Sequence record: NZ_CP035507.1
Strand: one strand, 5' to 3'
Source: a plasmid
DNA length: 64,000 nt
Both the position numbers and the translations under genes were made by a program. The notes beneath the pieces were generated by a model. That model was not told the DNA's origin, searched no databases, and saw only the letters and a list, made by a program, of their open reading frames with translations. Below, piece after piece: positions 7,223-39,824 of the stretch (its first letter is position 1; each line of letters begins with the position of its first letter).

Positions 7223-7225
7223 GCC

Positions 7226-8257: not shown

Positions 8258-8422
8258 GCAGCGTCGCGCAGGGGGCGGTCGGGGATAGCGGGGCAGGGGT
8301 CACGGCTCCCTGTCGTGGCTCTGGACCGTCGCCTTGCCTATTCCTGGGTAATCTCATCCACCCGTCACCCGAGCGGCCTTCAAGAGATGGGCAGGCGGCC
8401 GTCAAAGGGGCCGCCCCTTCAA

Positions 8423-8501
8423 GGACGGGGGGCAACTGATTTCCGCCGGCGGGGACGAGCCCCGCCTTTGCATCGCGAAGAAAATCAGCTGCCCCCCGTC
8501 C
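8423..8501. other. Large imperfect inverted repeat / compound stem-loop between the toprim gene and the DUF2493 gene
   Basis: Left arm ggacggggggcaactgatttcc (8423-8444) pairs with right arm ggaaaatcagctgccccccgtcc (about 8479-8501) with one mismatch. The 34 nt loop contains a nested hairpin gcgggg-acgagc-cccgc. Confidence 0.4.
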
Positions 8502-8623
8502 TCCTCCACATGCGTTCCGGCCCCGAAAGGGGGTGAAGGGGCGTCCCCTCCCACGGCTTTCGCAGCCCATGAAGGCCGCGCGGGATGACGCGCGGACGAG
8601 ACAGGCCAGGAGGCAAGAAACCA

Positions 8624-13955: not shown

Positions 13956-16900
13956 ATGGACCTGATCGGGATCGAAAACGAAGCCGAGTTCTTCCCGTCC
14001 GGGACCCTTTCGGACGTGCTGAAGGAGGAGCTTCAGGACATCACCGCCCGCTGGGCCGGTCTGGACCGGGCCGCCCATCCGGTCGAGCGGCTGGCCCGCG
14101 TCGCCGGCCCGACCGTCGAGGCGCTGCGCCAGGTGCGTAACAGTTCGGATCGGTCCCGGCGCGCCGAACTGGTCAGGGACGCGCACCACGACGTGCTGAC
14201 CGCCCTCGGCTACGTGTGGCGGCGCGAGGGGGCCTACACGGCTCTCGACGGGGCGCCGGTAATCCCACTCGTGTCCCGCGCAGCAGATACCAGCGGTCGT
14301 GATGCGCTCTGGGTGATCGAGGCGCCGATCCCGGCCCCGGAGGACGAGGCGTCGGACCCGCTGGGGACCTGCTTCACGGAGGAGCAGCTTCCACCGGACC
14401 AGCGCGAGGCAGCCCTGACCGACCGGACCATCGAGTCCGTCCTCGCCGAGGGGGTGTTCGAGCTGTCCGACGGCCCTCGTCACGTGCTTGTCCTCGGCCT
14501 GTCGCAGATCGTGCTGATCGACAAGAGGAAATGGCCGGCCCGGTCCGTCCTCCGGTTCGACCTTCAAGAAATCTTCGCCCGGGCGGACCGGGACACGCTC
14601 ACCGTGATGGCCTGCCTGATCTCCCGAGAGGCGCGCGTCCCGGATCAGGGGGCGCCGATCTCGGATCGGCTCGAGGAGGAGGCGCAGCGGAACGCAAACG
14701 CAGTCACGACCTCCCTGAAGCGAACCGTCCGGGACGCGATCGAGCTGCTCGGCCAGGAGGTGATTGCGGTCACCGGCGGGAAGTACCCGTCCAGCTTCCC
14801 GGACCCGGCCCGGCGCGGGGTCTGGATCGACGGGCCGGAATTGTCGCGCGAATGCCTGCGTTACATGTACCGGCTGTTGTTCCTGTTCTACGCGGAGGCG
14901 AACCCCCGTCTGAACCTGCTCGACATGCGGAACCCGATCTACGCGACCGGATATTCGCTTGAGGCGCTGCGAGAACTGGAATCCGTTCCGCTCCGGACCA
15001 CGGCGGACCGGGAGGGGACGTTCCTCTGGGAAAGCCTTCAGCGGACCCTCGACCTCCTCTACACTGGGCTCGACCTCGCCGATGAGGAACGGGGGTCCGG
15101 TCTTCGCCTACCGGCCGTGAAGGTTTCCCTGCTCGACCCGGAGAGCACGCCACTCCTGAACGGGCTGCGGCTGCGGAACGAGGCAGTTCAACAGGTGATC
15201 CGCCTGCTGTCGCTCCGGTCCACCGGCAAGAGCACGGGCCGGATATCTTACGCGAAGCTTGGGATCGGCCAGTTGGGCGCGGTCTATGAGACCCTGATTT
15301 CGTTCACCGGAGTGGTCGCCAAGACCGACCTCATCGAGCTGAAACCCCGGAAGGGCCGGTCGAATGACGCGGCCGAGGACGGGGAGGAGGCCGAAGCCAC
15401 CGAACCGGAAGAGGACGGCGAGGAGGACCTGTTCGGTGAGGAAGAGGCCGAACAGGAGGACGCGTTCCGCCGTGATAAGGTGGACAAGCTGGCGCCCAGC
15501 TGGTTCGTCCCCCGCAGCCGGATCAACGAATTCGCCCCGGAAGAGATCGTCTTCAACGGGTCCGAGGCGCTCGTCTATGAAAAGGGGACCTTCATCTACC
15601 GCCTCGCCGGCCGGGACCGGGAGAAGTCCGCCTCCTACTACACGCCCGAACCCCTCGCCCGGTTGCTGGTCAAGCACGCGCTGATGGAGCGGTGCCGGGA
15701 CCTGACCGCCGATCAGCTTCTGGACCTGAAGATCCTCGAACCCGCGATGGGCTCTGCGGCCTTCCTCGTGGAGACCACGAACCAGCTGGCCGACCTCTAC
15801 CTCGAGCGGAAACAGAAGGCGACGGGCCGGACCATCCCGCAGGAGGACATCGTCCTCGAGAAGCAGCGGGTCCGGGCCTACATCGCAGACCGGAACTGCT
15901 TCGGGGTAGACCTCAACCCGATCGCCGTCGAACTGGGGGCGATCTCGCTGTGGCTGAACAGCCTGCACGGGAGCGAGTTCTCGCCCTGGTTCGGGGACCA
16001 GCTTCACGCCGGGAACTCCCTGATCGGCGCGCGCCGGGCCGCCTATGCCCCCGCGCTTCTCAGCGCCAAGGCGCAGGGCGACCTGTGGTTCAACGGGAAG
16101 CCCGATGAGATCGGCTGGCGCAAACGCCTGCCGGACGGGCACGTCTGGCAGTGGCTCCTCCCCGCCAAGGACATGGCGAACTTCGACAAGGACAAGTCGA
16201 TCGCCCCCTTCGCGAAATCCGCGCAGGATCAGATCAAGGCGTGGCGCAAGGACGGCTTCTTCAAGAAGCTCGAACCCCACGAGATCAAGCTGGTCCAGAA
16301 GCTCAGCCGGGTCGCCGAGGCGCTGTTCGAGCAGGTGGCCGAGGACCTCGCCAAGACGCGCGCAGCCGCGAATGACGAGATCACGCTCTGGCCGAACAAG
16401 GTCATGCCGGGGAACAAGCGGCTAGACTTCCACGAAAAGGCTCGCCTGAACGCCCACCTGACCGGGGCTGACCACGCGACCAACACGCTCCCCTACAAGC
16501 GGCTGAAAACAGCGATGGACGCGTGGTGCGCCCTCTGGCTCTGGCCGCTGGACAAGGCGGACCTTCTGCCCGGCCGGGCGGAGTTCCTTCAGGGGATGGC
16601 GATGATCCTTGAGGGCGGGTTCACCGCTGACGGATCGCTGGCCGCGCCGAGCGTGTCGGAGTTCGCCGATCCGGCCCCGGACTTCCTCGACCTGCTGGAA
16701 CCCGACGCCCCCGCCCGCGACCTGTTCAAGGCCGCCGCCAAGCGGCAGGACGGGCTGTTCCGGGAAACGAATGTCGAGGCGCTGATCGAGAATTTCGACT
16801 GGCTGAAGACGGCGGTCGAGGTGGCCGAGCGCGAGCGCTTCGTGCATTTCGACCTGATCTTCGCCGACGTGATGAAGGCGCGCGGCGGCTTTGACGTCAT

Positions 16901-18908
16901 CGTCGGAAACCCGCCCTGGGCCAAGCCCTCGTGGAACGAGGGGCTGGTGTTGGCGGATATCGACCCGCTTCATGCGGGGCTGTCGGCGTCGGACGCGAAG
17001 AAGGTCCTGCCCGAGGCGCTGCCTAAGGCCCCGCCCGTGCGGCGCGAGGGGAGGACGGTTCCGGCCGTCGAGGCGTTCCTACAGGATTTCGTGTCGACTC
17101 GGGGGGCGATGGAGGTAACTTCGTCCGAGGTGATGAACCCCTTTGCCGGGGGCGGGTCGAACAACCTCTATCGCTGCTTCATCGACCTGTCGTTCCGGTT
17201 GGTCGCGCAGCAGGGTTATGCGGCGCTGATCCATCAGGACGGGCATCTGGGCGACCCGAAGTCGGGGGTGTTCCGGCGGCACTGGTATGCGCGGATCGCG
17301 AAGCATTTCGAATTCATCAACCGGATGAAATCGCGGAACTTCATGGAGGTTGATCACAACGTCAGATTCAGCCTGAACATCTATCGCGGCGAGCAGCGCG
17401 CGCCAGATTTCGAGAAATTCACTTACGCCTTCACAGCCGCACAGGTCGAAGATTCGTATGCGGATCAGGACGGGATCGGCCCGGTCCCCAGTATCAAGAA
17501 TTCAGAAGGGAACTGGGACACCCGCGGCCATCGTGACCGCGTGATGCGGATCGACCGCGATGCGCTGGCGGTGATCCATGCCCTTTCTGAAGATGAGACG
17601 GTCGCGGTTGAAGAGGCCCGGTTCATTCAGCCTTATTCGGCCCGAACCCTGGACGTCTTCCGCCAGATGGCGCGGTTTCCAAAACTCGACGCCGCGATCC
17701 CACGGATCGAGCGTTCGGTGAGCGCGGGTGCTGGAGAGCGGATAATTGAAATTCCGTTGTGGCAACAGTCGCCCCACTGGCATGAAACGGCTGCCCAAAA
17801 AGACGGGACAATCCGGCGTGAGACTGGCTTCCGAGCAGCGGATCAGATGATACTTCAGGGACCGCTGTTTCACGTCGGGAACCCGATTTACAAGACGCCC
17901 AAGGCGATCTCACGGACAAATGCGGATTACCTCGTTGTCGACCTGACCACCGCGCCTGAAGACTATCTGCCGCGCACGAATTACGGTCCGGCGCTGGAGA
18001 TGAAAGATTACCGGAGCCGGATGACCCAGTGCCGCTGGGACCCGACGAAAGGCCACGCCGATTTCTATCGCGTGGCGTTTCGGAACATGATTGCTCTAAA
18101 CGGAGAGCGCAGCTTGATCGGTGCGATGATCCCGCCGGGCGCGGCGCACATACACAAGGTTGAAAGCATCGCTTGTGCGGACGTTTCAGTTTCTCTCGCA
18201 ATACACTCGTTCGCTTGTTCGATCCCGTTCGACTATTTGGTCAAGGCAAACGGACGCGGTGATCTTTTTGCCTCTGATATAGGCCGATGGCCGTTTCCAG
18301 AACTGGAGGATACCGCCAGGCACCGCTCCCTGCGACTCGCCTGTATCACCTCGGCCTACGCCGACCTCTGGAACTGCCACGCTACCACACTTGATGTCCT
18401 CCCGTGGTCCTCCCCTGACCCCCGACTCCACCTCGAAGGTCCGGTCGAAGGCCCGGTCACTTGGGACCGAACCGCAGGCCTCCGGACCGAATTCGCCCGC
18501 CGCATGGCGCTTGTCGAGATTGACGTGCTGGTCGCGCAGGCGCTCGGCCTGACCCTCGACCAGTTGATCGAGATCTATCGGATCTACTTCCCGGTCCTTC
18601 AGGAGAACGAGGCGGGCACCTGGTATGACCAGAAGGGCCGGATCGTCTGGACCTGCTCCAAGGGCCTGCCCGGCGTCGGCTGGCTCGACGACCGCGGCAA
18701 AAGCCCCGGCCGCGCCGCCTGGGAGCGTATCCTCGCCGACAACCCGACGGAACTGACCTGCACCGCCATCGACGACACGATGCCCGGCGGCCCCCGCACC
18801 GTCACCCGCCACTTCGTCGGCCCCTTCACCCGGTGCGACCGGATCGAGGACTACCGCCGCGCCTGGGCCCATTTCGAGCGGCTGAAATCCGAAGAGGCCG
18901 CTGAATGA
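13956..18908 (+). CDS. Giant N6-adenine DNA methyltransferase, PglX/DrmMI-like (type IIG-like gamma-class)
   Basis: About 1650 aa. SAM-binding motif I ILEPAMGSAAFLVE. Catalytic motif IV VIVGNPPWAKPSW. YYTPEPLARLL motif. Acidic low-complexity insert AAEDGEEAEATEPEEDGEEDLFGEEEAEQED. The start MDLIG at 13956 lies 5 nt after the SNF2 stop. Confidence 0.8.
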   Translation: MDLIGIENEAEFFPSGTLSDVLKEELQDITARWAGLDRAAHPVERLARVAGPTVEALRQVRNSSDRSRRAELVRDAHHDVLTALGYVWRREGAYTALDGAPVIPLVSRAADTSGRDALWVIEAPIPAPEDEASDPLGTCFTEEQLPPDQREAALTDRTIESVLAEGVFELSDGPRHVLVLGLSQIVLIDKRKWPARSVLRFDLQEIFARADRDTLTVMACLISREARVPDQGAPISDRLEEEAQRNANAVTTSLKRTVRDAIELLGQEVIAVTGGKYPSSFPDPARRGVWIDGPELSRECLRYMYRLLFLFYAEANPRLNLLDMRNPIYATGYSLEALRELESVPLRTTADREGTFLWESLQRTLDLLYTGLDLADEERGSGLRLPAVKVSLLDPESTPLLNGLRLRNEAVQQVIRLLSLRSTGKSTGRISYAKLGIGQLGAVYETLISFTGVVAKTDLIELKPRKGRSNDAAEDGEEAEATEPEEDGEEDLFGEEEAEQEDAFRRDKVDKLAPSWFVPRSRINEFAPEEIVFNGSEALVYEKGTFIYRLAGRDREKSASYYTPEPLARLLVKHALMERCRDLTADQLLDLKILEPAMGSAAFLVETTNQLADLYLERKQKATGRTIPQEDIVLEKQRVRAYIADRNCFGVDLNPIAVELGAISLWLNSLHGSEFSPWFGDQLHAGNSLIGARRAAYAPALLSAKAQGDLWFNGKPDEIGWRKRLPDGHVWQWLLPAKDMANFDKDKSIAPFAKSAQDQIKAWRKDGFFKKLEPHEIKLVQKLSRVAEALFEQVAEDLAKTRAAANDEITLWPNKVMPGNKRLDFHEKARLNAHLTGADHATNTLPYKRLKTAMDAWCALWLWPLDKADLLPGRAEFLQGMAMILEGGFTADGSLAAPSVSEFADPAPDFLDLLEPDAPARDLFKAAAKRQDGLFRETNVEALIENFDWLKTAVEVAERERFVHFDLIFADVMKARGGFDVIVGNPPWAKPSWNEGLVLADIDPLHAGLSASDAKKVLPEALPKAPPVRREGRTVPAVEAFLQDFVSTRGAMEVTSSEVMNPFAGGGSNNLYRCFIDLSFRLVAQQGYAALIHQDGHLGDPKSGVFRRHWYARIAKHFEFINRMKSRNFMEVDHNVRFSLNIYRGEQRAPDFEKFTYAFTAAQVEDSYADQDGIGPVPSIKNSEGNWDTRGHRDRVMRIDRDALAVIHALSEDETVAVEEARFIQPYSARTLDVFRQMARFPKLDAAIPRIERSVSAGAGERIIEIPLWQQSPHWHETAAQKDGTIRRETGFRAADQMILQGPLFHVGNPIYKTPKAISRTNADYLVVDLTTAPEDYLPRTNYGPALEMKDYRSRMTQCRWDPTKGHADFYRVAFRNMIALNGERSLIGAMIPPGAAHIHKVESIACADVSVSLAIHSFACSIPFDYLVKANGRGDLFASDIGRWPFPELEDTARHRSLRLACITSAYADLWNCHATTLDVLPWSSPDPRLHLEGPVEGPVTWDRTAGLRTEFARRMALVEIDVLVAQALGLTLDQLIEIYRIYFPVLQENEAGTWYDQKGRIVWTCSKGLPGVGWLDDRGKSPGRAAWERILADNPTELTCTAIDDTMPGGPRTVTRHFVGPFTRCDRIEDYRRAWAHFERLKSEEAAE

Positions 18909-19753
18909 CGGGGCGGCAGGGCGAACTTCCCTTCGAGGAAGGGATCGACGCGATCCTGCGCGATACGGCGGACCGGATCGACGAGCTTTACCGCGCCGCC
19001 AGCGAACCAGGCGCCCGCCCGCCGTGGGTGGACCTGTTCGACAGGATCGCGGGTCAAACCCACATGGCCCCGTTCAACCTGATGCTGGCCGACCTCCAGC
19101 GCCCGGGCGCGCGCTACATTGCGTTCCCCGACAAATGGCGGGAGATTGGACGGACGGTGAAACCGGCTTCGATCCCGATCGTCGTCCTGTGGCCGTTCTG
19201 CCCGGTGCGCTGCGCCTATGAACTGGCGGATACAACCGGGGACCCGGTCGACGACGCCCTTCTGGACAAGGTCTTCGGCGAGCCCGTCGAGGTTCGGGAT
19301 GGCCTCATCGACCGTGTAGCGCGCCGCGCCCTGAAGGAGGACCGGATCGACGTGAAATCGGTGAGCCTCGCCTCTACCCTTGCCGGTGATGCCCGCGCGG
19401 TTCCGGTGGATCCGACGGCCAAGGGTAAACCCATAGGACCGGGCTGGGTCGTCCGGGTCAACTCGAACCTCAATACGAACGCGCAATTCACAACGCTCGT
19501 CCACGAACTGGGCCATGTCTACCTCGGCCATCTGGGCGGGAACGGGAAGAAGTGGCCGGATCGGCGGCCCCCTCAATTGGATGTACGGGAGTTCGAAGCA
19601 GAGGCGGTGACATACATCGTCTGCAAGCGATTTGGCTTGCAGTCGAACTCGGCTGAATATCTGAATGGTTATTTGAAAGAGAAAACCATTGAATTTGTAA
19701 GTCATTCTGCGATCGCACGGGCTGCGGGAAGGATTGAACAACATGCCCGTTAG
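18905..19753 (+). CDS. HEXXH zinc-metallopeptidase-like protein (ImmA/IrrE / M78-like)
   Basis: 282 aa. TLVHELGHVYLGHL followed by EFEAEAVTYI (candidate third zinc ligand Glu). The start overlaps the MTase stop by 4 nt (ATGA). Confidence 0.6.
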   Translation: MTGRQGELPFEEGIDAILRDTADRIDELYRAASEPGARPPWVDLFDRIAGQTHMAPFNLMLADLQRPGARYIAFPDKWREIGRTVKPASIPIVVLWPFCPVRCAYELADTTGDPVDDALLDKVFGEPVEVRDGLIDRVARRALKEDRIDVKSVSLASTLAGDARAVPVDPTAKGKPIGPGWVVRVNSNLNTNAQFTTLVHELGHVYLGHLGGNGKKWPDRRPPQLDVREFEAEAVTYIVCKRFGLQSNSAEYLNGYLKEKTIEFVSHSAIARAAGRIEQHAR

Positions 19754-19779
19754 TGCAGGTTTGGCGGAGTGATGACAGT

Positions 19780-22700
19780 ATGAACCCGATCCTCCTCGCC
19801 CGTCATGTGCAGGACAGCCTGCGCGAACTGGTCCACACGACGCTGAACAGCACCAGCCCCGCCTTTGAGGGAATGGTGGACCGGTTCATCACCGAGCCCG
19901 CGAACTTCCTGAAGGGGCCGTGGATCTCGGTCGACATGCCGTTCCGGCAGATCGACGGGGCGAAGGAGGGGACGTGGGCGCAGCCCTTCCCGGAGGTTCC
20001 GCTGAAATTCGCGCCCTACCAGCACCAGACGGACGCCTTTGCCCGGCTGAGCGGGACGGCGATGCGCTCGACCCTGGTCGCGACCGGGACCGGGTCGGGG
20101 AAAACTGAATCCTACCTGTGGCCGATCCTGGACCACTGTCGGCGGAACAAGGGGAAGCCCGGGATCAAGGCGATCCTGATCTACCCGATGAACGCGCTGG
20201 CGACGGACCAGGCGCGCCGCATTGCGGATGCGCTGACCCGGATCCCGTCGCTGAACGGGGTGCGGGCCGGGATCTATGCGGACGCGGAGCCGCAGAACCC
20301 GGCGCATGAGGTGACCGAGGACAGCGTGATCACGCATCGCGAGACGATGCGGAAGAACCCGCCGGACATCCTGCTCACGAACTACAAGATGTTGGATTAC
20401 CTGCTTCTACGCGGCCGGGACAAGCCGCTCTGGGCGCAGAACGACCCGGAAACGCTCCGGTTTCTGGTGGTCGACGAGATGCACACCTTCGACGGGGCGC
20501 AGGGGGCGGACCTGGCCCTGCTGCTGCGCCGCCTGAAGTACCGGCTGAACACCCCGGAAGGACACCTGATCTGCGTGGGGTCGTCGGCAACGCTTGGCTC
20601 CGGGGAAGAGGCGGCGACGGACTTGCGCCAATACGCCGAGACAATCTTCGGCGAGCCGTTCGACGCGGGCGCGGTGGTCCGGGAGACCCGGAAATCCCCC
20701 AACGAGGTGTTCGGCGACGCGGAGTATCTGGACCGGCCGGATCCCGCCGATATCCACGGCGCCTTGAGAGCGGCGACGGAAATGGACCAGCCGGGTGCCG
20801 CGCGACGGCTCGCTGTCTGTCTGTTCCCGGATCGGACCGACCCCGACCTCGCCTTTCTGGACACAGGTGATCCAGCGGACCCGGCTTGGCGGATCGCACT
20901 CGGGGACCGGCTTGTCCAGCATCACCTGTGTCAGCGGACCCTGAAGATCATCGCCGAGCACAAGGGACCCGCTTCGCTTGAGGCGATTGCGGCTGGGCTG
21001 GGACAAGTCCGGGTCCTTCGTGACTGGCCCGAGGCAGACCTGACTGCGCTCGCCGAGCTGGTCGTAGGGCTGGTCGCCTGGGCCCGGTCCGGGTCGGCTG
21101 AGAGCCCGCGCCCTCTATTCAACGTCAGGCTCCAGCTCTGGATCCGGGAGATGGCCCGGATGGTGACAACCCTGCCGCGACTCGAGGCGGGCGGGGTCCG
21201 TTCACAGATCGACCTTTTCCATGAAATGGACCTGGAAAGGGACCAGCTTTGCCGGGCCCTTCCGGTCGTGAACTGCAACCGGTGCGGGGCGACCGCGCAT
21301 CTCGGACGGCAGGACGCCCGGTCGAAGTCGCTACATGCGGACCTGGAGCAGCTCTACCAGGAGTTCTTCGACGAGAACGGGGCGGACCGGATCCGGCTCA
21401 TCTATCACGAGTCGATCGACCGGATGGTCCCGGCCAGCGGCGCCGGTGGTCAGATCGTGAAGGGGGTCCTGAACGCGGAAACGGTCGAGTTCACCCCGGC
21501 CGATCACAAGGATCTCGGCCCGGGACCGGCCTCACAGGTCTGGTTGTACAACCCGACCGACGCGAACGGACGGATCGACCGGACCTGCCCTGCCTGCGGG
21601 CAGGCGCGCGGGCTTCTCCTCTTCGGGATGCGGGCGGCGCGTTTGACGACCGGCATCACCGGTACCCTTTACACCTCCGAACAGAACGAAGAGAGCCCCG
21701 AGGCAAAACCGCGCTTCCTGATGTTCTCGGATTCGGTTCAGGACGCGGCGCACCGGGCGGCGGTGGCCGAAACCCGGAACGCACTGTCGGTCTACCAGAA
21801 GGCACTCTACGGGGCGCTTCGGTCCGCGGAAACGGGCGCGATGAGCCTGAAAGAGGTGATCGAGGACGTCCCGCGCGCCCAGTTGAACGACCTCGGCCCG
21901 GACGGGTTCACAGCGCTGTTCATCCCGAAGGAGTTGACCTGGCGGCGGCGCTACCGGGAGCTGGTCGAAAGCGGGGCCACCATCACCGACCCGGTGTTTC
22001 TCGACCATATCCGGATCCGGCTCGGCTGGGAGTATTTCGTCGACCTGAGCTACAGGGCGCATTTCAACCACACGCTTGAATTGAACGGCATGGCGGCGGC
22101 GGATGTGCCCACGGATCTGCTGCGCCTGTCCGCGGAGCGGCTGGCACGGGAGCTGCGAAACGATCTGCCGGGCGCGCCGGAGTTCGACCCGGCCCTTCTG
22201 ACCCGGCTCCTCGCCGGGGTGACGCAGCGGATGCGGCGGCAGGGGTCCGTGGCGCACCCCTATCTCGAGAGCGCGATCGCGAACGGGAAAGGGAACTACG
22301 GGCTGAACTGGTACGCGGCCGCCATCCAGGTGGGCGTGGGGAAGACCGGTTCCCTGCCAAGCCCGGACAGCCGGCGGGGCCTCGCGCCGATCCCGGTGAC
22401 CCTCGGCGCCGCCCCGACCGGGTTTGAGAAGATCACCCGGACCGGCCCCGCGAGCTGGTACCGGGACTGGCTGTTCCGGCTGATCGGACCGTCCGACCTG
22501 CGCTACGGCGCGGACCCTGACGCGATCTATCCGCTCCTCCTGCGCCGACTTGAGGCCGACGACATCGTCCGACGCGTGAACGGGCCCGAGGGGCAGAACC
22601 GGCATGCCTGGCTTCTCGTGCCGGAACGGGTCACCGTCTCCACCGCGACGATCGGGCTGTGCTGCGACTTGTGCGGTCGGCGCGAGACCGGGCTTTCGGA

Positions 22701-25700
22701 AAACGCAGGTGTCCTGATCGGCTCCCCCTGTACGCGGATCGGTTGTGACGGGCACCTAGCAGCGGTTGAGCAGGCTGACCGGCCCGCCCTGCGCCGCGCC
22801 CTTCGCTCGGACCGAAACCACCGGGTGGTGGCGCGAGAACATACCGGCATCCTCGAAACGGATGAGCGGCTGCGGATCGAGACCGGGTTCATCAAGAGCG
22901 AAACCCGCTGGGCCCCGAACCTGATCTCGGCCACTCCGACCCTGGAGATGGGGATCGATATCGGGGACCTGTCCACCCTGCTTCTGAGCTCGGTCCCCCC
23001 GGAGGAGGCGAATTACGTCCAGCGGATGGGGCGGAGCGGGCGGCGCGACGGGAACGCGCTGAACATTGTGCTGGCGAATGCGCGTGCCCATGACCTCCAG
23101 TTCTGGGAAGACCCAACCCCGATGCTGGCAGGCCAGGTCCGGCCGCCGGGCGTGTTCCTCGCGGCCGAAGAGGTGCTGCTTCGTCAGGTGACCGCCTATA
23201 CCCTCGACGCCTATGTCGCGGCCACGAAGGAGAGCGGGGATTACGGGAAGGTCCGGGACGTGCTGAAACGCCGGGCCTCCGGCGCGACCGAAGGGTTCCC
23301 GGTTGAGTGGCTTGAACTGGTTCGCGAAACCGGGCCGGAACTGGCAGACCGGTTCCTGTCTGGCCTGCCGCAAGAGGTGCAGGACCGGACGGATCTGGCC
23401 GACCGGATCCGATCTTACCTGACCGGAACGGACCCGAAATCGATCGGCTGGCGCGTCGGGGAGGCCTTCGACGGAGCTGCCACCGAACGGGCCCGGCTGG
23501 TGGAAAAGCGCGAGGAAGCGACCAAGGAACTTGGTCGGCTCAAGAAGCGCCGGGCCGAGCTGACCGATGAAGAATATGAGCGTCGTGAACAGGACCTGAC
23601 CCGGGACCGGACCGAGATCAACCGTCTGATCCGAAGCGGGATCGACGATGTGCCGGTGATCAAGTTTCTGACCGACAAGGGAATCTTGCCGAACTACGCC
23701 TTCCCCGAAGAAGGGGTGAAGCTGACGTCGATCCTGTCGCGGCGCAACGATGGCGCGACAGCACGGGACGAGGACGGGCTTCTGCACGTCGAATACTCCC
23801 GGCCCGCCAGCTCCGCCCTGTCGGAATTCGCGCCGGGCCAGTTCTTCTACGCCAACGGGCGCCAGGTGCAGATCGACCGGATCGAGATCGGCAAGGAAGA
23901 TTTGGCCCGCTGGACCTTTTGCCCAGCCTGTTCGCATGTCGCGCACCGGATTGAGGGCGCCGAGACCCGCACCTGCCCGCAATGCGGGGACGAGATGTGG
24001 TCGGATAGCGGCTCCGCGCATGACGTGGTCCAGCTCAAGTCTGTCATCGCGATCGACAGCGAGGAAAAGGCGGCGATCCGGGACGGGGATCAGCGGGACC
24101 AGCGTCAGTTCGACCGGGTTCTCATGCCCTTCCATGGACCGGAAGACATCGCCGCCTCCTGGTTCACCAGCCGGGAGAACGGTGCCCCGTTCGGGTTTGA
24201 ATTCCTGCCCAGTTGCACGTTCCGCGACTTCAACTTCGGGACGAAGTCCACCCTCCCCGGGCCGCGGATCGCGGGCGAGCGTCGGCCCGCACAGCCGTTC
24301 CGGATCTGTCGCCACTGCGGGTCCCTTCAGGGTCCCCCACGCGGCGAGGACGATCGCGGAACGCACCCGCCGAACTGTCTTGTCATGCGGGATGAGGACC
24401 TGCTTCGCGAGCAGTGGGAAACCGGCGTGTTCCTGATGCGAAAGTTCGACACGGAGGCGATCCGGATCGTGATCCCGGTGGTCGGGGACGCGGATGATGA
24501 TGACCTGAAAAGCTTCGTCGCGGCGATCAACCTCGGGATGCGGCGTCACTTCGCGGGGAAGGTCGACCATATCCGGTCCACCATCTTCCAGGCGCAGCTG
24601 AACGGAATGACCACGGTTCGCAGCCTTTACCTCTACGATTCCGTGCCGGGCGGATCAGGCTATCTGCGTCAGATCGCGGAACATCCGAACACGATGCGCG
24701 AGGTTGTCAGCCGCGCGGCGGAGGCGCTCCGGGACTGCCCCTGCAACCAGGAGCCGGACCGGAACGGGTGCTTCCGCTGTGTGAAGCCCTACCGGTCACA
24801 GTTCGGGCCCGGCGAGCCAGATCGGGACCGGGCGCGGCAGATGATGGAGGCGATCCTCGAGAAATGGGACAGCCTGACCCAGACCGAGACCGGGATCGAC
24901 GCGTCAATTCGGGGCGCGCTGGTCGAGAGCGTGCTGGAGAAGCGGTTGCTGCGCGCCCTTTCCGGCTTCTATGGAGACGGGGCGCTGACGCCGCAGGTGC
25001 TGCCGGGTGGACGGCGTGGGTTCGTCCTGCGCGCGGGTCGGCCGGACGCGCCGCGCCTCTGGACGATCGAGCCGCAGGTGCAGATTGACGCGCGGTTCCG
25101 GGGCCTGCCCCGCAAGCGTGTCGACTTCCTGCTCACCCCGGTTGGCCGCAGCAGCGGCCTGCCGATCGTCATCGAAATGGACGGGATCGAGTATCACGCG
25201 GGTACGGTCGCCCAGGACCTGTTGGACCGGATGTTGATGATCAGGTCCGGGCAGGTGCGGGTCTGGACCCTGTCCTGGCGCGATCTTGACCCGGAGGACA
25301 AGGGCTACCTGAACCCGCTCTCTGAAACCGCCCTCGGGGCGCAGATGACCGGGCCCCTTGGGCGTGCGCTGGCGCATCCGCTGCTCGCCCCACATGCAGA
25401 GGCGGTCCGGACGCTTCAGACAATCAGCACGCTCGATGCACTGAGGCGCCTTCTGGACGGGGATGCGGACGGGGATGCGGTGATCCGGTCCGTCCTGATC
25501 CGGGGCCTCGTGAAGGGCGGTCGCCCCATCGACCAGCTTCCCCGGCAGGCGGCCCTTTCAGAGGCGGGGCGCCTGTTTCTCTCCGGTACACAGGCGGTGG
25601 AACAGGTCGGGGTCGGGGCGCTCGATCTCTATCTGGCCTGTGAGAAGATCTCGCCCACCGAATGGGCCCAATCGGTTCGCGACCTTCGTCTTCTCCTGCG

Positions 25701-26181
25701 TTCGGTCCTGCCCGATCCGGGCGAGGTTCCGGCCGCGAAAACCCTCTACACGGAGGCCTGGCGCGGGCTCTGGCGGATCGTGAACCTGTTCCAGGGCGTG
25801 CGTGGTCTTCATGTCGAGTTCGACGGGCTGGACACGTTGGCCCCACCCGATATGGTGGAACCCGTCGACCAGGGGGACCAGGGCCCCGGCTTGGCCGCTT
25901 GGGAAGAGGTGCGGGCGCTGTGCGACGACGCGTTCCACCCGTTGATTGACGCGTTGATCGCGGCCGAGGCGCCCGGGCCGGACCACTTCGGGGACGATCT
26001 GGTTGCGGGCGGACGCGTGGTGGGCGCTATGGAATTCGGATGGTCGGATACCCGCGTCGCGGTTGCCGAAACATCCCTTGAGGGGGTCGGCTGGGCGCTG
26101 ATCCCGTTTGATCCGGAAACCGATCAGATGGGGGAGACGGTCTCGCGAATTATCACGGCCCTTCAGGAGGCACGGACATGA
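19780..26181 (+). CDS. Giant DExH-box helicase with multiple CxxC zinc ribbons (DUF1998-like; DrmA/DrmB-like fusion or DruE/MrfA-like)
   Basis: About 2133 aa. Motif I VATGTGSGKTESY. Motif II FLVVDEMHTFDG. Motif VI QRMGRSGRR. CxxC pairs: CNRCG...CPACG, CPACSHV...CPQCG, CRHCG...NCLVM, CPCNQE...GCFRCV. ATG at 19780. The listed 19753 start overlaps the upstream stop. Confidence 0.8.
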   Translation: MNPILLARHVQDSLRELVHTTLNSTSPAFEGMVDRFITEPANFLKGPWISVDMPFRQIDGAKEGTWAQPFPEVPLKFAPYQHQTDAFARLSGTAMRSTLVATGTGSGKTESYLWPILDHCRRNKGKPGIKAILIYPMNALATDQARRIADALTRIPSLNGVRAGIYADAEPQNPAHEVTEDSVITHRETMRKNPPDILLTNYKMLDYLLLRGRDKPLWAQNDPETLRFLVVDEMHTFDGAQGADLALLLRRLKYRLNTPEGHLICVGSSATLGSGEEAATDLRQYAETIFGEPFDAGAVVRETRKSPNEVFGDAEYLDRPDPADIHGALRAATEMDQPGAARRLAVCLFPDRTDPDLAFLDTGDPADPAWRIALGDRLVQHHLCQRTLKIIAEHKGPASLEAIAAGLGQVRVLRDWPEADLTALAELVVGLVAWARSGSAESPRPLFNVRLQLWIREMARMVTTLPRLEAGGVRSQIDLFHEMDLERDQLCRALPVVNCNRCGATAHLGRQDARSKSLHADLEQLYQEFFDENGADRIRLIYHESIDRMVPASGAGGQIVKGVLNAETVEFTPADHKDLGPGPASQVWLYNPTDANGRIDRTCPACGQARGLLLFGMRAARLTTGITGTLYTSEQNEESPEAKPRFLMFSDSVQDAAHRAAVAETRNALSVYQKALYGALRSAETGAMSLKEVIEDVPRAQLNDLGPDGFTALFIPKELTWRRRYRELVESGATITDPVFLDHIRIRLGWEYFVDLSYRAHFNHTLELNGMAAADVPTDLLRLSAERLARELRNDLPGAPEFDPALLTRLLAGVTQRMRRQGSVAHPYLESAIANGKGNYGLNWYAAAIQVGVGKTGSLPSPDSRRGLAPIPVTLGAAPTGFEKITRTGPASWYRDWLFRLIGPSDLRYGADPDAIYPLLLRRLEADDIVRRVNGPEGQNRHAWLLVPERVTVSTATIGLCCDLCGRRETGLSENAGVLIGSPCTRIGCDGHLAAVEQADRPALRRALRSDRNHRVVAREHTGILETDERLRIETGFIKSETRWAPNLISATPTLEMGIDIGDLSTLLLSSVPPEEANYVQRMGRSGRRDGNALNIVLANARAHDLQFWEDPTPMLAGQVRPPGVFLAAEEVLLRQVTAYTLDAYVAATKESGDYGKVRDVLKRRASGATEGFPVEWLELVRETGPELADRFLSGLPQEVQDRTDLADRIRSYLTGTDPKSIGWRVGEAFDGAATERARLVEKREEATKELGRLKKRRAELTDEEYERREQDLTRDRTEINRLIRSGIDDVPVIKFLTDKGILPNYAFPEEGVKLTSILSRRNDGATARDEDGLLHVEYSRPASSALSEFAPGQFFYANGRQVQIDRIEIGKEDLARWTFCPACSHVAHRIEGAETRTCPQCGDEMWSDSGSAHDVVQLKSVIAIDSEEKAAIRDGDQRDQRQFDRVLMPFHGPEDIAASWFTSRENGAPFGFEFLPSCTFRDFNFGTKSTLPGPRIAGERRPAQPFRICRHCGSLQGPPRGEDDRGTHPPNCLVMRDEDLLREQWETGVFLMRKFDTEAIRIVIPVVGDADDDDLKSFVAAINLGMRRHFAGKVDHIRSTIFQAQLNGMTTVRSLYLYDSVPGGSGYLRQIAEHPNTMREVVSRAAEALRDCPCNQEPDRNGCFRCVKPYRSQFGPGEPDRDRARQMMEAILEKWDSLTQTETGIDASIRGALVESVLEKRLLRALSGFYGDGALTPQVLPGGRRGFVLRAGRPDAPRLWTIEPQVQIDARFRGLPRKRVDFLLTPVGRSSGLPIVIEMDGIEYHAGTVAQDLLDRMLMIRSGQVRVWTLSWRDLDPEDKGYLNPLSETALGAQMTGPLGRALAHPLLAPHAEAVRTLQTISTLDALRRLLDGDADGDAVIRSVLIRGLVKGGRPIDQLPRQAALSEAGRLFLSGTQAVEQVGVGALDLYLACEKISPTEWAQSVRDLRLLLRSVLPDPGEVPAAKTLYTEAWRGLWRIVNLFQGVRGLHVEFDGLDTLAPPDMVEPVDQGDQGPGLAAWEEVRALCDDAFHPLIDALIAAEAPGPDHFGDDLVAGGRVVGAMEFGWSDTRVAVAETSLEGVGWALIPFDPETDQMGETVSRIITALQEART

Positions 26182-28349
26182 CAGACACAATGACCAAGCG
26201 GGTCTCCTACGACATCGGCTGCATGAAGAGCCTGCGGAAACTGCCGGACCGGGTTGCGCTCCGGTTCATGGACCTGATGACCAAGTATATGTCGGACCCG
26301 TCCGCGAATGGGCTGAACCTGGAAACGGTGGAAGGATCGAGGGACAGCTCGATCAAGTCCATGCGGGTCGACCAGGGGTATCGGGCCATCGCCTTCGAGG
26401 TCGGCCGCGACATCATGTTCGTGCATGTCAACGAGCACGACAAGGCCTACCGCTGGGCGGCAGGGCGCCGGGTCAAGCTCGACCCGGAAACGAACCGGAT
26501 CCGGGTGATTGAGGAGGTGGACGCGGTTGTCGAACCGGTGGCGACGCCGGATACCTACGCTCCTCGCCTCTTCGACGAGGTGACGGATGCAAGGCTGCGC
26601 GCCCTCGGCGTGCCGGAGGAGGAGCTGACGGCCGTTCGTCAGATCCCCACGATCGAGGCGCTGGAAGGCGCGGAGGACCGGTTCGATCCGCTCACCTATC
26701 AGATCCTTTACGCGGTCGCGGCCGGTTATGCGGATGAGGAAATCCAGTCCCTGACCGGGGTCGGCGCGGAACCGGACGCGGAACCGCAGCAGCCCGCCGC
26801 GGAGCTGACCTTCGGAAAGCTGATCGAGACCGAGCAGAGCCGCCAGACCATCTTCATTCCCGAAAGCGAGGAGGAGCTGCGCCGCGTTTTCGAGGAGGGG
26901 CTTGAGGGCTGGCGCGTGTTCCTGCACCCCGAACAGCGCAAGATCGCCTACCGGGACTACAACGGGCCGGTTCTGGTCCGGGGCGGGGCTGGTACCGGCA
27001 AGACTGTCGTCGCGATGCACCGGGCCAAGCACCTTGCAGACCAGATCAAAAACGATCCGACCCGATCCGGCCAGCGGGTCCTTCTGACCACCTTCACGAC
27101 CAGCCTCGCGCATGACATCGAGGCGAACCTCCGGACCCTGTGCCCTGACCATCTGGACGCCCGCCCGCCCCGGATCGAGGTGATCAACCTCGACCGCTGG
27201 GTCTCTCAGTTCCTCAAGCGCAAGAGCTTCGCCCGCGAGGTCGCCTTCTTCGGCGAGGCGCGGGACCGGCTGGACCAGGTGTGGAAGGAGGTCTTCGATG
27301 ATCACGAGCTGCCCGAGGGGCTGTCTGAGCCGTTCGTTCGCGCGGAATGGGCGCAGATCGTCCAGGCGAAGGGGCTGACCGATCAGAAGGGATACCTGAA
27401 GGCGTCCCGGGCCGGCCGGGGCACCCCTCTCGACCGCAAGAAGCGGGCGGTGCTGTGGGACATCTTCGCCGATTACCGGGCCCGGCTGATCAGCGAAGGG
27501 CTCGCGGAGCCTGACGACGCTTACCGCGAGGCGACCGAGATCCTGACCTCCGAAGCGCCGAACCTGCCCTACAGCGCGGTCATCGTCGATGAGGCGCAGG
27601 ACATGGGCGAACAGGCGTTCCGGCTGATCCGCGCGATCATGCCCGAGACCCCGGCGGGGGACCGGAACTCCCTCTTCATCGTGGGCGACGCGCATCAGCG
27701 GATCTATGGGCGGCGGGCCGCCATGTCCGCCTGCGGGATCAACGTGCGCGGCCGCTCGAAGCGCCTCCGCCTGAACTACCGGACCACGCAGGAGATCCGG
27801 GCCTGGGCGGTCTCGGTTCTCGAGGGGGTCAGCGTTGACGATCTTGATGAAGGGACGGATACCCTACGCGGTTATGTCAGCCTCATGCGCGGGGCCGCCC
27901 CCGAGCTGGTCGGGTGCCGGACAGAGGCGGAGGAGCTGGACGGGCTGGTGGCCTGGGTCCGGGCCCTGCCGCCCGACCAGATCCGCCTCTCCGACATCGG
28001 GGTCCTGTGCGCGCGTCGCGCCGACGCGGACCGGGTTCAGGCGGCGCTCCGCGCGGCCGGTATCGAGACGGTGATGCTCCAGTCCGGTGCGGACGACCGG
28101 TCCGTTCCGGGGATTCGGATCACCACGATGCACCGGGCGAAGGGGCTCGAGTTCTTCGCCGTGGCGATCCCCTTCCTGTCCGAGGCGGCCTTCCCGCCAC
28201 CGGGTGCGCTCCGGGCCGCCGTGGATCCGGCAGATAAGGAGGACATTATCATGCAGTACCGGTCCCTCCTGCATGTCGCTGCGACCCGGGCGAAAAAAGC
28301 TCTCCGCATTTCATGGTCGGGGACGCCAACTGGCATTTTCACGGTCTGA
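26178..28349 (+). CDS. UvrD/PcrA-like superfamily-1 helicase with an N-terminal RelE/ParE-fold domain
   Basis: 723 aa. Residues 1-100 end in YRAIAFEVGRDIMFVHVNEHDKAY, the RelE/ParE C-terminal beta-strand signature. Helicase Walker A VRGGAGTGKTVVAMHRA. Motif II AVIVDEAQDMG. C-terminal TMHRAKGLEF. The start overlaps the upstream stop (ATGA). Confidence 0.75.
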   Translation: MTDTMTKRVSYDIGCMKSLRKLPDRVALRFMDLMTKYMSDPSANGLNLETVEGSRDSSIKSMRVDQGYRAIAFEVGRDIMFVHVNEHDKAYRWAAGRRVKLDPETNRIRVIEEVDAVVEPVATPDTYAPRLFDEVTDARLRALGVPEEELTAVRQIPTIEALEGAEDRFDPLTYQILYAVAAGYADEEIQSLTGVGAEPDAEPQQPAAELTFGKLIETEQSRQTIFIPESEEELRRVFEEGLEGWRVFLHPEQRKIAYRDYNGPVLVRGGAGTGKTVVAMHRAKHLADQIKNDPTRSGQRVLLTTFTTSLAHDIEANLRTLCPDHLDARPPRIEVINLDRWVSQFLKRKSFAREVAFFGEARDRLDQVWKEVFDDHELPEGLSEPFVRAEWAQIVQAKGLTDQKGYLKASRAGRGTPLDRKKRAVLWDIFADYRARLISEGLAEPDDAYREATEILTSEAPNLPYSAVIVDEAQDMGEQAFRLIRAIMPETPAGDRNSLFIVGDAHQRIYGRRAAMSACGINVRGRSKRLRLNYRTTQEIRAWAVSVLEGVSVDDLDEGTDTLRGYVSLMRGAAPELVGCRTEAEELDGLVAWVRALPPDQIRLSDIGVLCARRADADRVQAALRAAGIETVMLQSGADDRSVPGIRITTMHRAKGLEFFAVAIPFLSEAAFPPPGALRAAVDPADKEDIIMQYRSLLHVAATRAKKALRISWSGTPTGIFTV

Positions 28350-28368: not shown

Positions 28369-29469
28369 TCAAACCATGAGCCAATACCGCGTATGGCGCC
28401 GCTCCCCGGTACGGCTAAGCGCGCCCATCTCCACCAGGTCCTGCAGGTCCCGCGTTGTGGTGGCGCGTGACGTGCCGGTTATGGCGATGTAGTTCTCGGC
28501 GCTGAGGCCGCCTTTGAACCCGTCGGGCCCCTCGCGGAACATGCGCTCAATCACCTTGGCTTGTCGCTCGTTCAGTCGATCACGGAACTGGTCGTAGAAC
28601 TTCGCCTTGGCGATGAAGAACGCGACCCGTGTCAGCGTTACCTGCTGCGCCTTCAGAACGATCTCGGCGAACCAGATCAGCCAGCCGGTTACGTCCAGCG
28701 TCTTCTGGTGGGTTTCGAGCTGGTCGTAGTAGGCTTTCCGGTCCCGTTCGATCGTATAGGCCAGCGCGATTAGGCTCGGCTGGCCGATGTTCTGCGCAAG
28801 GGACTTTTCCGCCAAGGCGCGGCCGAGGCGACCATTGCCGTCCTCGAAGGGATGGATGCTTTCGAACCAGAGGTGCCCAAGCGCCGCGCGGGTTAGTGCT
28901 GGCAGGGGCGTTGTGCCGTCTGGCGCCGTTCGGTTGAACCAGTCGACGAACACGTCCATCTCGCCCTGGACCTGCGCGGAGGGCGGCGCCTCGAAATGCA
29001 CCGTCGGCCGGTCGATGCGACCGGAGACGATCTGCATCGCGTCGGCATGTCGCCGGTAGGCCCCGATGGTTTCGAGCCCGCGGTCATGTGCCAGGAGCAT
29101 CCCGTGCCATCGGCTGAGGGTCTCGTGGGTCAGAGGCGCGCCGTAGGTCGAGTAGACGTCGACCATCATCTCTGCGACGCCCTGTTCCTTGGGCTTCGAT
29201 GGCGCACCGTCAGTGATCAGACCGAATTGCCGCCGGAGGGAGGATTGCACACTGCCCCTGTCTAGCACCTCGCCTTCGATGGCGCTTGTCCGCATCGCCT
29301 CTTCACTCAGAAGTTCGATGCGCAGGCGGTCGCGTTCATTGCCGGTCACATGGCGGACGGCGCCGAGAATCTCGCCGGATGACAGTAGGAACCGCCGCTC
29401 GAGAGGTTCGATGGCAGCGCTGTCATAGACGAAATTCGGCCAGTCGGGTTGATTCCAGTTCCAGCGCAT
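28369..29469 (-). CDS. Fic/DOC family protein, class II (intramolecular inhibitory helix) with C-terminal wHTH
   Basis: Fic motif HPFEDGNGRLGR. Upstream inhibitory motif TSAIEG of the form (S/T)xxxE(G/N). 366 aa. Confidence 0.85.
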   Translation of the reverse strand: MRWNWNQPDWPNFVYDSAAIEPLERRFLLSSGEILGAVRHVTGNERDRLRIELLSEEAMRTSAIEGEVLDRGSVQSSLRRQFGLITDGAPSKPKEQGVAEMMVDVYSTYGAPLTHETLSRWHGMLLAHDRGLETIGAYRRHADAMQIVSGRIDRPTVHFEAPPSAQVQGEMDVFVDWFNRTAPDGTTPLPALTRAALGHLWFESIHPFEDGNGRLGRALAEKSLAQNIGQPSLIALAYTIERDRKAYYDQLETHQKTLDVTGWLIWFAEIVLKAQQVTLTRVAFFIAKAKFYDQFRDRLNERQAKVIERMFREGPDGFKGGLSAENYIAITGTSRATTTRDLQDLVEMGALSRTGERRHTRYWLMV

Positions 29470-36754: not shown

Positions 36755-36774
36755 CTGGCCCATACCGGCCAGTC
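36753..36774. terminator. Hairpin at the virD4 stop (possible bidirectional terminator between convergent virD4 and the pAgo gene)
   Basis: gactggcc-catacc-ggccagtc, an 8 bp perfect stem. No clear U-run. Confidence 0.3.
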
Positions 36775-36878
36775 GGCGTTATGCAAAGGCGCTGCTCTCG
36801 CAGCGTGTATAGCTGCCATTCGATAGGGCAAGCACAATGCCTCGATCCGCCTTCAGTCACAGTGTGCAGGCGAAGGAG

Positions 36879-38327
36879 CTACATAAAGAAGCTATAGCGC
36901 GTTTGCACCCGGTCATTTTCTCTAACGTACTTGAGTATCTTTCCCACCTTGCGTGACGCAGCGATAGTAATCGGGTCTCGGTTGTCGAATTGCGTATTGT
37001 TCCAATTCATCTTGCTCAATGCCAATATCTCTGCGGCATTGTGGGTGACCGGTTGAGAAGGAGCCTGTGACCGGATCATCAAAGGCTTGGGAATGTACAT
37101 CCCGGTGTATGTTTTGAAGAAGTCCACACCGCCCCGGCTGTACAATATCGCACGGTCGCGATCCAAACGCAGCAACGTACCGCGCAAGGGTGGAAACTGC
37201 CCGTCGCGGAACAGCCGGAAGGCGCTTGGGGCGACCGCCATGCAGTCCAAGTTATCAATTCGGCATTCCTCTACGGCGGCGTCGAAACCCGCCATTTCTT
37301 CCCTGTGAAAGGGCGACGTCTTATGCAGCACCACCCGGGCCGGATACTGCGAATGCTGGTCGTAGTAAGCCTGCATCGAGCGGGAAAGCAGGTCGTGCGC
37401 GTGAGCCTCTGTCATATAGGGCCGCCGGTCGTCCGACAGCTTGGCGGCGCGCCCCCCGCGCAGGATCATGCCTTCGCCCCGCTCGTCGAACATCTGCGCG
37501 GTGCTGGTTTCAAGGTACTCGCCGCCGCACGACTCGTGGAAGCTAATTCCCACGAAGCAGGAACGCATCTGCCGGGAATCCCGCGCCAAACGCCACGGTA
37601 GACCGCCCGCCTTGTAGTACAGCGCCGTGAACAAGTTCCATGCGCGGGTTGCGTCCTCCTGCACCTCGCGAAAACTGTCAGTTTTCGTCTTTCGGGGAAT
37701 CTTGATCGTTGGATCGTACAGCGTGGGCCAGAAGATCTGAATGGGCAGGCCGAACTCCATCGCAGCGATCTTCAATCGCGCACGGAAGTCCAACCCTGAG
37801 GGCGCCGCCGCGTCCTCCACCACATCATCGTCGTCGGCGCTCACATTCACCGCCGCAATCACGTCCAGCGGCAGGCCGATTAGCACCACGTCTGGCCGGG
37901 TGTTGCCCTCGGCCAGCGCCCGCAGCTCCGCCACGAACAGGTCGGCGTAGCGATCCGCTAGGTCCAGCGGATTTGTGTTCTTCAACTTATTCAGTGTTCG
38001 GGCCGGTATTGTGCGGGTGTCCTGCTCGTCGCAGGTGAAGGCAACTCGGAACGGGCCGTCAGACGTGCAGCCTGGGAACGGCGGATACAGGTTCGTCAGG
38101 CGGGTGTCCGCTTTGCCATCGATGCCAGCGGCGCAACGCGCGAACCAGCCTTGGGTGCCCTCCACCGTTTCCGTGTCACCGATCAGACCCACTCGCACGG
38201 CGGTCGGCGCGCCGGTTTGTCCGGCGTCCAGCGGGCCGTAGTCCATGAGGCCGAACCGAATGTCGATGTGGCGATGCGCCTGCCCGAACTCCAACTCGGG
38301 TTCCGGCAAGTGGGACAGCTTCATCAT
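36879..38327 (-). CDS. Short prokaryotic Argonaute (MID-PIWI, catalytically inactive), SPARDA-type
   Basis: MID/PIWI boundary motif YYKAGGLPWRL (compare eukaryotic Ago ..KLGGVN..). The PIWI GxDV position reads CFVGISFHES and the RDG position reads YSRGGVDFF, so the catalytic Asp residues are lost. The ATG at 38327 overlaps the upstream stop in an ATGA. The listed TTG start is at 38375. Confidence 0.75.
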   Translation of the reverse strand: MMKLSHLPEPELEFGQAHRHIDIRFGLMDYGPLDAGQTGAPTAVRVGLIGDTETVEGTQGWFARCAAGIDGKADTRLTNLYPPFPGCTSDGPFRVAFTCDEQDTRTIPARTLNKLKNTNPLDLADRYADLFVAELRALAEGNTRPDVVLIGLPLDVIAAVNVSADDDDVVEDAAAPSGLDFRARLKIAAMEFGLPIQIFWPTLYDPTIKIPRKTKTDSFREVQEDATRAWNLFTALYYKAGGLPWRLARDSRQMRSCFVGISFHESCGGEYLETSTAQMFDERGEGMILRGGRAAKLSDDRRPYMTEAHAHDLLSRSMQAYYDQHSQYPARVVLHKTSPFHREEMAGFDAAVEECRIDNLDCMAVAPSAFRLFRDGQFPPLRGTLLRLDRDRAILYSRGGVDFFKTYTGMYIPKPLMIRSQAPSQPVTHNAAEILALSKMNWNNTQFDNRDPITIAASRKVGKILKYVRENDRVQTRYSFFM

Positions 38328-39616: not shown

Positions 39617-39824
39617 GGAACGACACCACTAGAATTTGTTGCTGCTCGACGAGCGAGCACCATAGGGTGTGCTGGCGACAATTTCAATGTCATCGGTCTG
39701 CCATCACCTAAGCAAGGCTGTGGTCAAGAGGGCTTTGATGGTGTGACCGCCCTCTTCGTGGATCATCGATGACTCACCCTGGCACACAGATGCCGTCGGG
39801 TGGCGGTCACACCATCAAAGCCCT

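Follow-up and report, generated by a model that had tools for sequence, protein, structure and literature searches.

The closest described relative of the locus examined here is the anti-phage defence system ARMADA type II, in which a fusion of a RelE-like domain to a UvrD-like helicase was published in 2025 as ArmD (Bell et al., bioRxiv 2025.09.15.676423, PMC12458937). Its genes follow a strict order that opens with a BrxHII-like helicase, a PglX-like methylase and a YprA-like helicase (PMC12458937). In E. coli NCTC 12900, loss of any one of armA to armD abolishes phage protection, and within ArmD the K266A substitution abolishes defence and D454N weakens it (PMC12458937). The same loss of defence was found in an independent armD deletion in EDL933 (PMC13463889). 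Protection by ARMADA II is direct and non-abortive (PMC12458937), and according to a 2026 paper the system is already detected by DefenseFinder. Here, we analysed 64,000 nucleotides of an alphaproteobacterial plasmid (NZ_CP035507.1; this whole stretch is referred to as the window) and, within it, a gene of 723 codons at 26178–28349 (+ strand) whose product joins an N-terminal toxin-fold domain to a superfamily 1 (SF1) helicase. Its sequence and that of its neighbours identify this gene as armD, the last of the four conserved genes of an ARMADA II operon that reads armA-armB-armC-armD, with an extra M78-like gene between armB and armC. The original prediction, made from the DNA letters alone, had not recognised this architecture as a described one, a view superseded by the published work (PMC12458937, PMC13463889): the fusion is already known, and the window adds one more copy, moderately diverged, to a system that has been published and validated by experiment. 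Taken as a whole, the locus is very probably best explained as armD of ARMADA II on an alphaproteobacterial conjugative plasmid or integrative and conjugative element (ICE), with a RelE/YoeB-fold N-terminal domain (N-domain) and a mechanism that we infer below.

The proteins of the operon were compared one by one with those encoded on the E. coli O157:H7 Sakai island (ECs_5261–5264); all the window genes concerned lie on the + strand. The first gene, armA (11000–13951), encodes a SNF2/RapA-like (BrxHII/DrmD-like) helicase (Pfam SNF2-rel_dom and Helicase_C; PADLOC DrmD, E 1.6e-102, and BrxHII) that is 38% identical to ECs_5261 over its full length; its open reading frame (ORF) opens at TTG 10754, and ATG 11000 is the likely start. 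It is followed by armB (13956–18908), coding for a PglX/type IIG-like N6-adenine DNA methyltransferase (Pfam Eco57I and N6_Mtase; PADLOC REase_MTase_IIG and DrmMI) with 35% identity to ECs_5262 end to end (1750 alignment columns). The ORF of armB opens at ATG 13920, the in-frame ATG 13956 being where the orthologue alignment starts, and its NPPW motif lies at residue 997 in the window protein and at residue 971 in that of E. coli. The third conserved gene, armC (19780–26181), encodes a YprA/DruE-like DEAD/DEAH helicase with an MrfA Zn-binding (DUF1998) domain (Pfam DEAD, Helicase_C and MZB; PADLOC DruE, E 2e-97). Its ORF (2142 aa) opens at GTG 19753 and orthologues begin at ATG 19780; identity to ECs_5263 is 33% over 1905 alignment columns, with the BLASTP alignment ending at residue 1845 of 2142. 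Finally, ArmD is 39% identical to ECs_5264 (721 alignment columns, E 4e-160), and this alignment opens at residue 6 versus 5, so that the N-domain is covered. The Walker A lysine 266 and the Walker B aspartate 454 of ECs_5264 correspond to the numbering of the residues mutated by Bell et al. Thus, the window shows features by which ARMADA II members are recognised, among them a BrxHII/RapA-like ArmA in first place, a PglX-like ArmB with an NPPW motif and a YprA-like ArmC with DUF1998, and the gene order armA-B-C-D is common to the window and E. coli O157. The two copies also agree at the armC/armD junction: in the window the genes share a 4-nucleotide (nt) ATGA overlap (26178–26181) and a Shine-Dalgarno AGGAGG (26165–26170) stands 7 nt 5' of the armD ATG at 26178 (whole junction 26165–26181, read from the sequence), and the same 4-nt overlap occurs in E. 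coli O157, in agreement with the translational coupling to a giant helicase gene that had been proposed.

Other assignments of the operon were considered and rejected. DISARM class I was excluded because none of the operon proteins has a phospholipase D (PLD) domain and because the counterparts of DrmA and DrmB, helicase and DUF1998, are fused in the 2142-aa ArmC. Druantia was excluded because its partner genes are absent (no DruH, DruA–D or DruM-F-G), even though the best PADLOC matches of ArmC are DruE. A type II toxin–antitoxin module was likewise discarded, since armD directly overlaps armC and there is no small antitoxin ORF upstream or downstream of it. It had also been suggested that the toxin-like module might replace the PLD nuclease of DISARM. 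The operon is instead DISARM-related ARMADA II, and because Bell et al. placed the ARMADA nuclease in ArmC, as a C-terminal Vsr-type domain (PMC12458937), ArmD represents an extra component and not a simple substitute for DrmC.

We then consider the N-domain itself. An AlphaFold2 model of ArmD residues 1–258, built from 28 homologues, gave block values of the predicted local distance difference test (pLDDT) of 77–91 across residues 11–100. The model contains a strand (8–12), two helices (13–20 and 24–39), four strands (48–50, 59–63, 68–75 and 78–86) and a last helix (87–94), and this predicted order of strands and helices, summarised as b-a-a-b-b-b-a, is the RelE/ParE topology, with the b1-a1-a2-b2-b3-b4 core that characterises the toxin fold. 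When the model was searched against the PDB with Foldseek, all of the 50 listed matches were RelE, YoeB, YafQ, HigB, ParE, the RelE-containing Cami1 or Txp40, the last (rank 43) being the sole insecticidal toxin among them. The best E-value was 3.9e-4, the target-normalised template modelling score reached 0.79, and RNase members ranked above the ParE gyrase poisons. Similarly, a profile of 28 diverged N-domains, run against all PDB sequences, matched S. aureus YoeB (7v6w_F) and P. horikoshii aRelE (1wmi_A) end to end, with E-values of 7.4e-5 and 1.5e-3, respectively; a narrower profile had earlier matched aRelE at E 0.065. In Table S2 of Bell et al., the RelE-like domain of ArmD is listed with a match to 3BPQ_D at E 0.0085 (PMC12458937). 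Structure prediction, Foldseek and the sequence profile therefore agree, as three independent lines, that the ArmD N-domain as modelled is a RelE/ParE-superfamily fold. The original prediction was right on this point, structure prediction having returned no other fold for the domain. Its call could not have been derived from standard annotation, because Pfam and NCBIfam are blind to this part of the protein: no match was obtained for residues 1–125 or 1–258, even at E<=10 or E<=1.

The toxin fold occupies residues 1–95 of ArmD (26178–26462) and is followed by a conserved beta-hairpin extension (residues 97–112, 26466–26513; model strands 97–102 and 107–112) that is absent from canonical toxins. 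Consistent with this, the family profile reaches position ~112–119 in nearly all matches, that is, beyond the toxin fold. What had been taken for a mere linker contains, in the predicted structure, a confident small five-helix domain (residues 129–193, 26562–26756; pLDDT ~97) with conserved Leu and Gly positions, which could act as a cis-inhibitor of the toxin fold or as a nucleic-acid- or partner-binding module. The remainder of the protein, residues 250–714 (26925–28319), is a GajB-like UvrD/SF1 helicase core, recognised by Pfam as UvrD-helicase, AAA_19 and UvrD_C (E 1e-21 and 4e-17 for UvrD-helicase and UvrD_C). Among the named PADLOC models, the best matches of ArmD were those of GajB, covering residues 249–712, and Bell et al. 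also matched the ArmD helicase to GajB (8IUD, HHpred, E 6e-32; PMC12458937). Every motif quoted for the ORF was located: YRAIAFEVGRDIMFVHVNEHDKAY at residues 68–91, GGAGTGKT at 269–276 (Walker A, K275), DEAQD at 471–475 (Walker B, D471) and HRAKGLEF at 652–659. The helicase behind the N-domain is thus complete, as had been proposed, and its Walker A, Walker B (DEAQD) and C-terminal UvrD_C motifs are invariant among 47 members of the family.

The fusion is widespread in other genomes. A first homologue search gave only fragments of <=434 aa, and full-length members came from an exhaustive search of 50%-identity representative clusters with the N-domain profile, which recovered 2006 clusters at E<=1e-3 and 854 at E<=1e-10. 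A family of this size argues that the N-domain is not a chance resemblance. The domain is almost always found at residues 1–119 of proteins of ~700–730 aa, and even among ten N-domain members of atypical length, nine had UvrD domains in Pfam, the tenth having no Pfam match at all. We also compared 47 related genome loci, from Alphaproteobacteria plus a few others. The order armB-armC-armD is kept in ~35 of them, i.e. wherever the flank sufficed, and armC and armD abut or overlap at the same point in most. A full-length ArmD homologue of 64% identity in a Hasllibacter metagenome-assembled genome (L038:8071-10236) appears as an orphan or relic, with an RTX-repeat protein and a glutathione synthetase upstream in place of armB and armC. 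Close relatives of the window operon (L002, L007, L014 and L026) differ from it much more strongly in the aligned C-terminal stretch of ArmB than in ArmC or ArmD; in L002, for instance, ArmB is 65% identical to that of the window while ArmC is 94% and ArmD 95% identical. At the level of sequence, this divergence of ArmB suggests an exchange of the methylase specificity region.

Conservation within the N-domain points to a possible active site. E49, S61, R63, H87, D88, W93 and A94 are invariant in the 47 full-length members (31–64% identity), and in the larger set of 174 members the counts were 173 for E49, R69, H87 and A90, 170 for S61, 172 for R63, 168 for D88, 165 for Y91 and 174 for W93. 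These N-domain residues are as strictly kept as the helicase motifs. The catalytic set of E. coli YoeB consists of Glu46, Arg65, His83 and Tyr84; that of E. coli RelE includes R61, R81 and Y87, and that of aRelE R85. In the hidden Markov model alignment to YoeB, E49, S61, R63, R69 and H87 stand against a Glu, a Ser, an Arg, an Arg and the penultimate His, so that E49, R69 and H87 occupy the positions of the Glu, Arg and His that we take to be catalytic. In the corresponding alignment to aRelE, H87 is opposite R85 and Y91 opposite the following Tyr. An hhalign alignment to E. coli YoeB also paired E49 with E46 and R69 with R65. At the alignment level, the catalytic residues of the RelE/YoeB ribonuclease toxins thus have counterparts in E49, R69, H87 and Y91, which are present in 165–173 of the 174 members, and the check for RelE-type catalytic residues that had been recommended came out positive for these positions. 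Together with R63 they form a Glu/Arg/Arg/His/Tyr set that is kept across ~170 diverged members and provides a concrete handle, and point mutants in it should be informative. The same residues bear on a ParE-like role, in which the N-domain would poison or recruit DNA gyrase or topoisomerase without any RNase activity. We regard this as very improbable, given that YoeB and RelE are the only significant sequence matches and that the RNase-type Glu/Arg/His/Tyr set is conserved; ParE toxins are not known to have it.

We think, from the sequence comparisons, that an active YoeB-type RNase site in ArmD is more probable than a dead scaffold. Several observations weigh against such a reading or against parts of the wider picture. 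The catalytic residues were mapped by profile alignment and not on superposed coordinates, and residue 60, the equivalent of RelE K52, is R, K, Y, H or C depending on the family member. The Pfam ParE/RelE models miss the ArmD N-domain. When the family alignment was compared by hhalign with E. coli RelE, YoeB and YafQ, the probabilities were 0.3%, 13% and 0.1%, with templates that were single sequences, too weak for this purpose, and of which only RelE was checked against the PDB (4v7k). In ArmC, the C-terminal 442 aa were searched for the Vsr-type nuclease with Pfam and gave no match, even with a cut-off of E<=1; the Vsr assignment by Bell et al. itself needed structure comparison, Pfam Vsr giving only E 0.12 to 5e-5 (PMC12458937). 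In the construct list of the same study, the ArmD mutants are K266A and D454N only, with none in the RelE-like domain (PMC12458937). Moreover, ARMADA II protects without viability loss or metabolic shutdown, as assessed with propidium iodide and resazurin (PMC12458937), and a classical mRNA interferase that acts globally and depends on the ribosome is hard to reconcile with such non-abortive protection.

Some of these points would be explained if the RelE-fold domain were a catalytically dead adaptor or sensor that serves to dock ArmD on a partner such as ArmC, or to bind nucleic acid or the ribosome, so that only the helicase/NTPase matters, as in the DNA-end-sensing GajB. This is a possible explanation, although we consider it unlikely. 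It accords with the non-abortive nature of the defence and with the essential Walker A lysine of the ArmD helicase (PMC12458937), as well as with the variable K52-equivalent position; the invariance of W93, A94, D88 and A90 could be structural or interface-related, and the tight translational coupling of armC and armD suggests a stoichiometric complex. However, the invariant residues are Glu, Arg, Arg, His and Tyr, all of them charged or typical of catalysis, and a pure scaffold is not expected to retain them in >95% of ~170 diverged members. Because these near-invariant residues align with the Glu, Arg and His of YoeB and with R85 of aRelE, we prefer the active site over the scaffold.

If the N-domain is an RNase, it might still be a classical ribosome-dependent mRNA interferase that is restrained in cis and freed if the DNA-targeting arm fails, as a back-up acting by abortive infection or dormancy, for which Cami1 (CARF-RelE) would be the precedent. 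The nearest structural matches (RelE, YafQ, YoeB and HigB) are indeed ribosome-dependent toxins, and Cami1, in which RelE is part of a multidomain protein whose structure was solved on the 70S ribosome (8phj/8phb), is among the Foldseek matches; in E. coli, lysis persists at the highest multiplicity of infection (PMC12458937), which such a back-up could accommodate. On the other hand, protected cells appear viable and metabolically normal in the propidium iodide and resazurin assays (PMC12458937), no antitoxin gene adjoins armD, and ~630 residues follow where canonical toxins end, so that the protein would have to rearrange extensively to reach the A site. For these reasons, we judge a back-up of this kind to be improbable.

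The findings raise the question of what need a non-abortive defence linked to DNA methylation has for a helicase that bears a toxin-type RNase fold. Our preferred model is a local cleavage of RNA delivered by the SF1 motor. Self DNA would be marked by ArmB methylation, and unmarked invader DNA would be attacked by the ArmA and ArmC motors together with the ArmC nuclease. ATP-driven translocation of ArmD may then carry the N-domain to RNA that is transcribed from the invader DNA or paired with it, with nascent transcripts, R-loops and the coupled lead ribosome as candidate targets. There the N-domain, most likely a YoeB-type endoribonuclease, would cut that RNA locally, with no global shutdown of translation. 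A bolder version of the model holds that the N-domain is a ribosome-independent endoribonuclease brought by the SF1 motor to RNA (transcripts, R-loops or primers) on unmethylated invader DNA, that RNA cutting is obligatory in the non-abortive defence and that, in some copies, the M78-like peptidase adds a layer of proteolytic control. In this complete form, the proposal is speculative and we put it forward with little confidence.

The M78-like gene (18905–19753, +) encodes a 282-aa HExxH (HELGH) accessory protein resembling ImmA/IrrE (M78), with a weak match to Pfam Peptidase_M78 (E 3.6e-4); its start overlaps the armB stop as ATGA. It behaves as a clean presence/absence cassette between armB and armC, as window positions 18902–19779 are missing from the colinear Martelella mediterranea plasmid pMM259 (NZ_CP020332.1, Hyphomicrobiales), whose alignment picks up again at the armC ATG 19780. 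The cassette was found in seven related alphaproteobacterial ARMADA II loci. The main text of Bell et al. makes no mention of such a metallopeptidase-like gene (PMC12458937), whose insertion between armB and armC in some alphaproteobacterial copies is new here.

Judging by gene content, the operon is carried by a conjugative element (plasmid or ICE), the window encoding a Strawberry-notch-like helicase, Toprim, YspA, ParA, MobC/relaxase, a type IV coupling protein (T4CP) and VirB4/6/9/10/11. Plasmid pMM259, which is typed as conjugative, carries armD with 100% nucleotide identity over the full 2172 nt, and it is colinear with the window at 90–95% identity, save for two window-specific segments (18902–19779 and 36771–39822). 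In addition, a contig of Rhodobacter sp. SGA-6-6 (L001, NZ_JAAKGP010000016.1, Rhodobacterales) encodes ArmC and ArmD proteins identical to those of the window. These sequence identities indicate that the element moved recently between orders (Rhodobacterales and Hyphomicrobiales). In the window, ARMADA II is seen on a conjugative element that carries it from one alphaproteobacterial order to another, with an optional metallopeptidase-like cassette in some copies.

Further genes surround the operon. Immediately upstream, and outside the published four-gene ARMADA II, lies a gene for a WYL-domain protein and putative regulator (10018–10926, +; Pfam WYL, E 2.6e-10; PADLOC WYL), annotated as WYL domain-containing in pMM259. 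Farther upstream, positions 2861–9556 hold leading-region genes typical of conjugative elements, namely those for a DUF7146-Toprim protein, a YspA/SLOG protein and a Strawberry-notch-like helicase of 1453 aa whose N-terminus weakly matches a methylase (mad2). The window-specific segment 36771–39822 is cargo between the T4CP and VirB6 genes, where pMM259 has different genes; it includes a 498-aa ORF (36879–38375, −) with no Pfam match and a gene for a DUF4365 protein (38324–39616, −). Two Fic-domain proteins are encoded at 28369–29469 (−) and 51788–53050 (−). The first of them, a DUF4172+Fic protein (PADLOC SoFic, E 8e-41), is convergent with armD and lies 20 nt downstream of it, and a DUF4172+Fic gene comes after armD in three of the related loci as well (L001, L018 and L021).

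Compared with known systems, the window copy is closest to that of E. coli. ArmD of E. coli has the same four-part layout (RelE-like N-domain, hairpin, helical domain and GajB-like UvrD core) and shares all the nearly invariant N-domain residues. The two copies differ in their setting: the window belongs to an alphaproteobacterium of 65% GC and to a conjugative carrier, whereas in E. coli the operon shares a tRNA-integrated, satellite-like island with Zorya II and Druantia III. Unlike E. coli, the window has the M78-like gene between armB and armC and the WYL gene upstream, and the last ~300 aa of its ArmC do not align with E. coli ArmC. The other relatives are more partial. GajB of Gabija has the UvrD-like SF1 core in common with ArmD but no RelE-like N-domain, and its partner is the OLD-family nuclease GajA instead of a YprA helicase and a methylase. 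The YoeB/RelE toxins are stand-alone proteins of 84–95 aa with a cognate antitoxin and act at the ribosomal A site, whereas in ArmD the domain heads a 723-aa helicase, carries the C-terminal hairpin extension and has no antitoxin gene beside it. Cami1 (8phb/8phj) also places a RelE domain in a larger protein, but its regulatory module is a CARF domain that senses cyclic tetra-adenylate (cA4) and not a helicase, and its outcome is an abortive arrest of translation. Finally, the operon as a whole is reminiscent of DISARM class I and Druantia, with ArmA resembling DrmD, ArmB resembling DrmMI and ArmC resembling a DrmA+DrmB fusion or DruE; the RelE-UvrD protein is absent from both.

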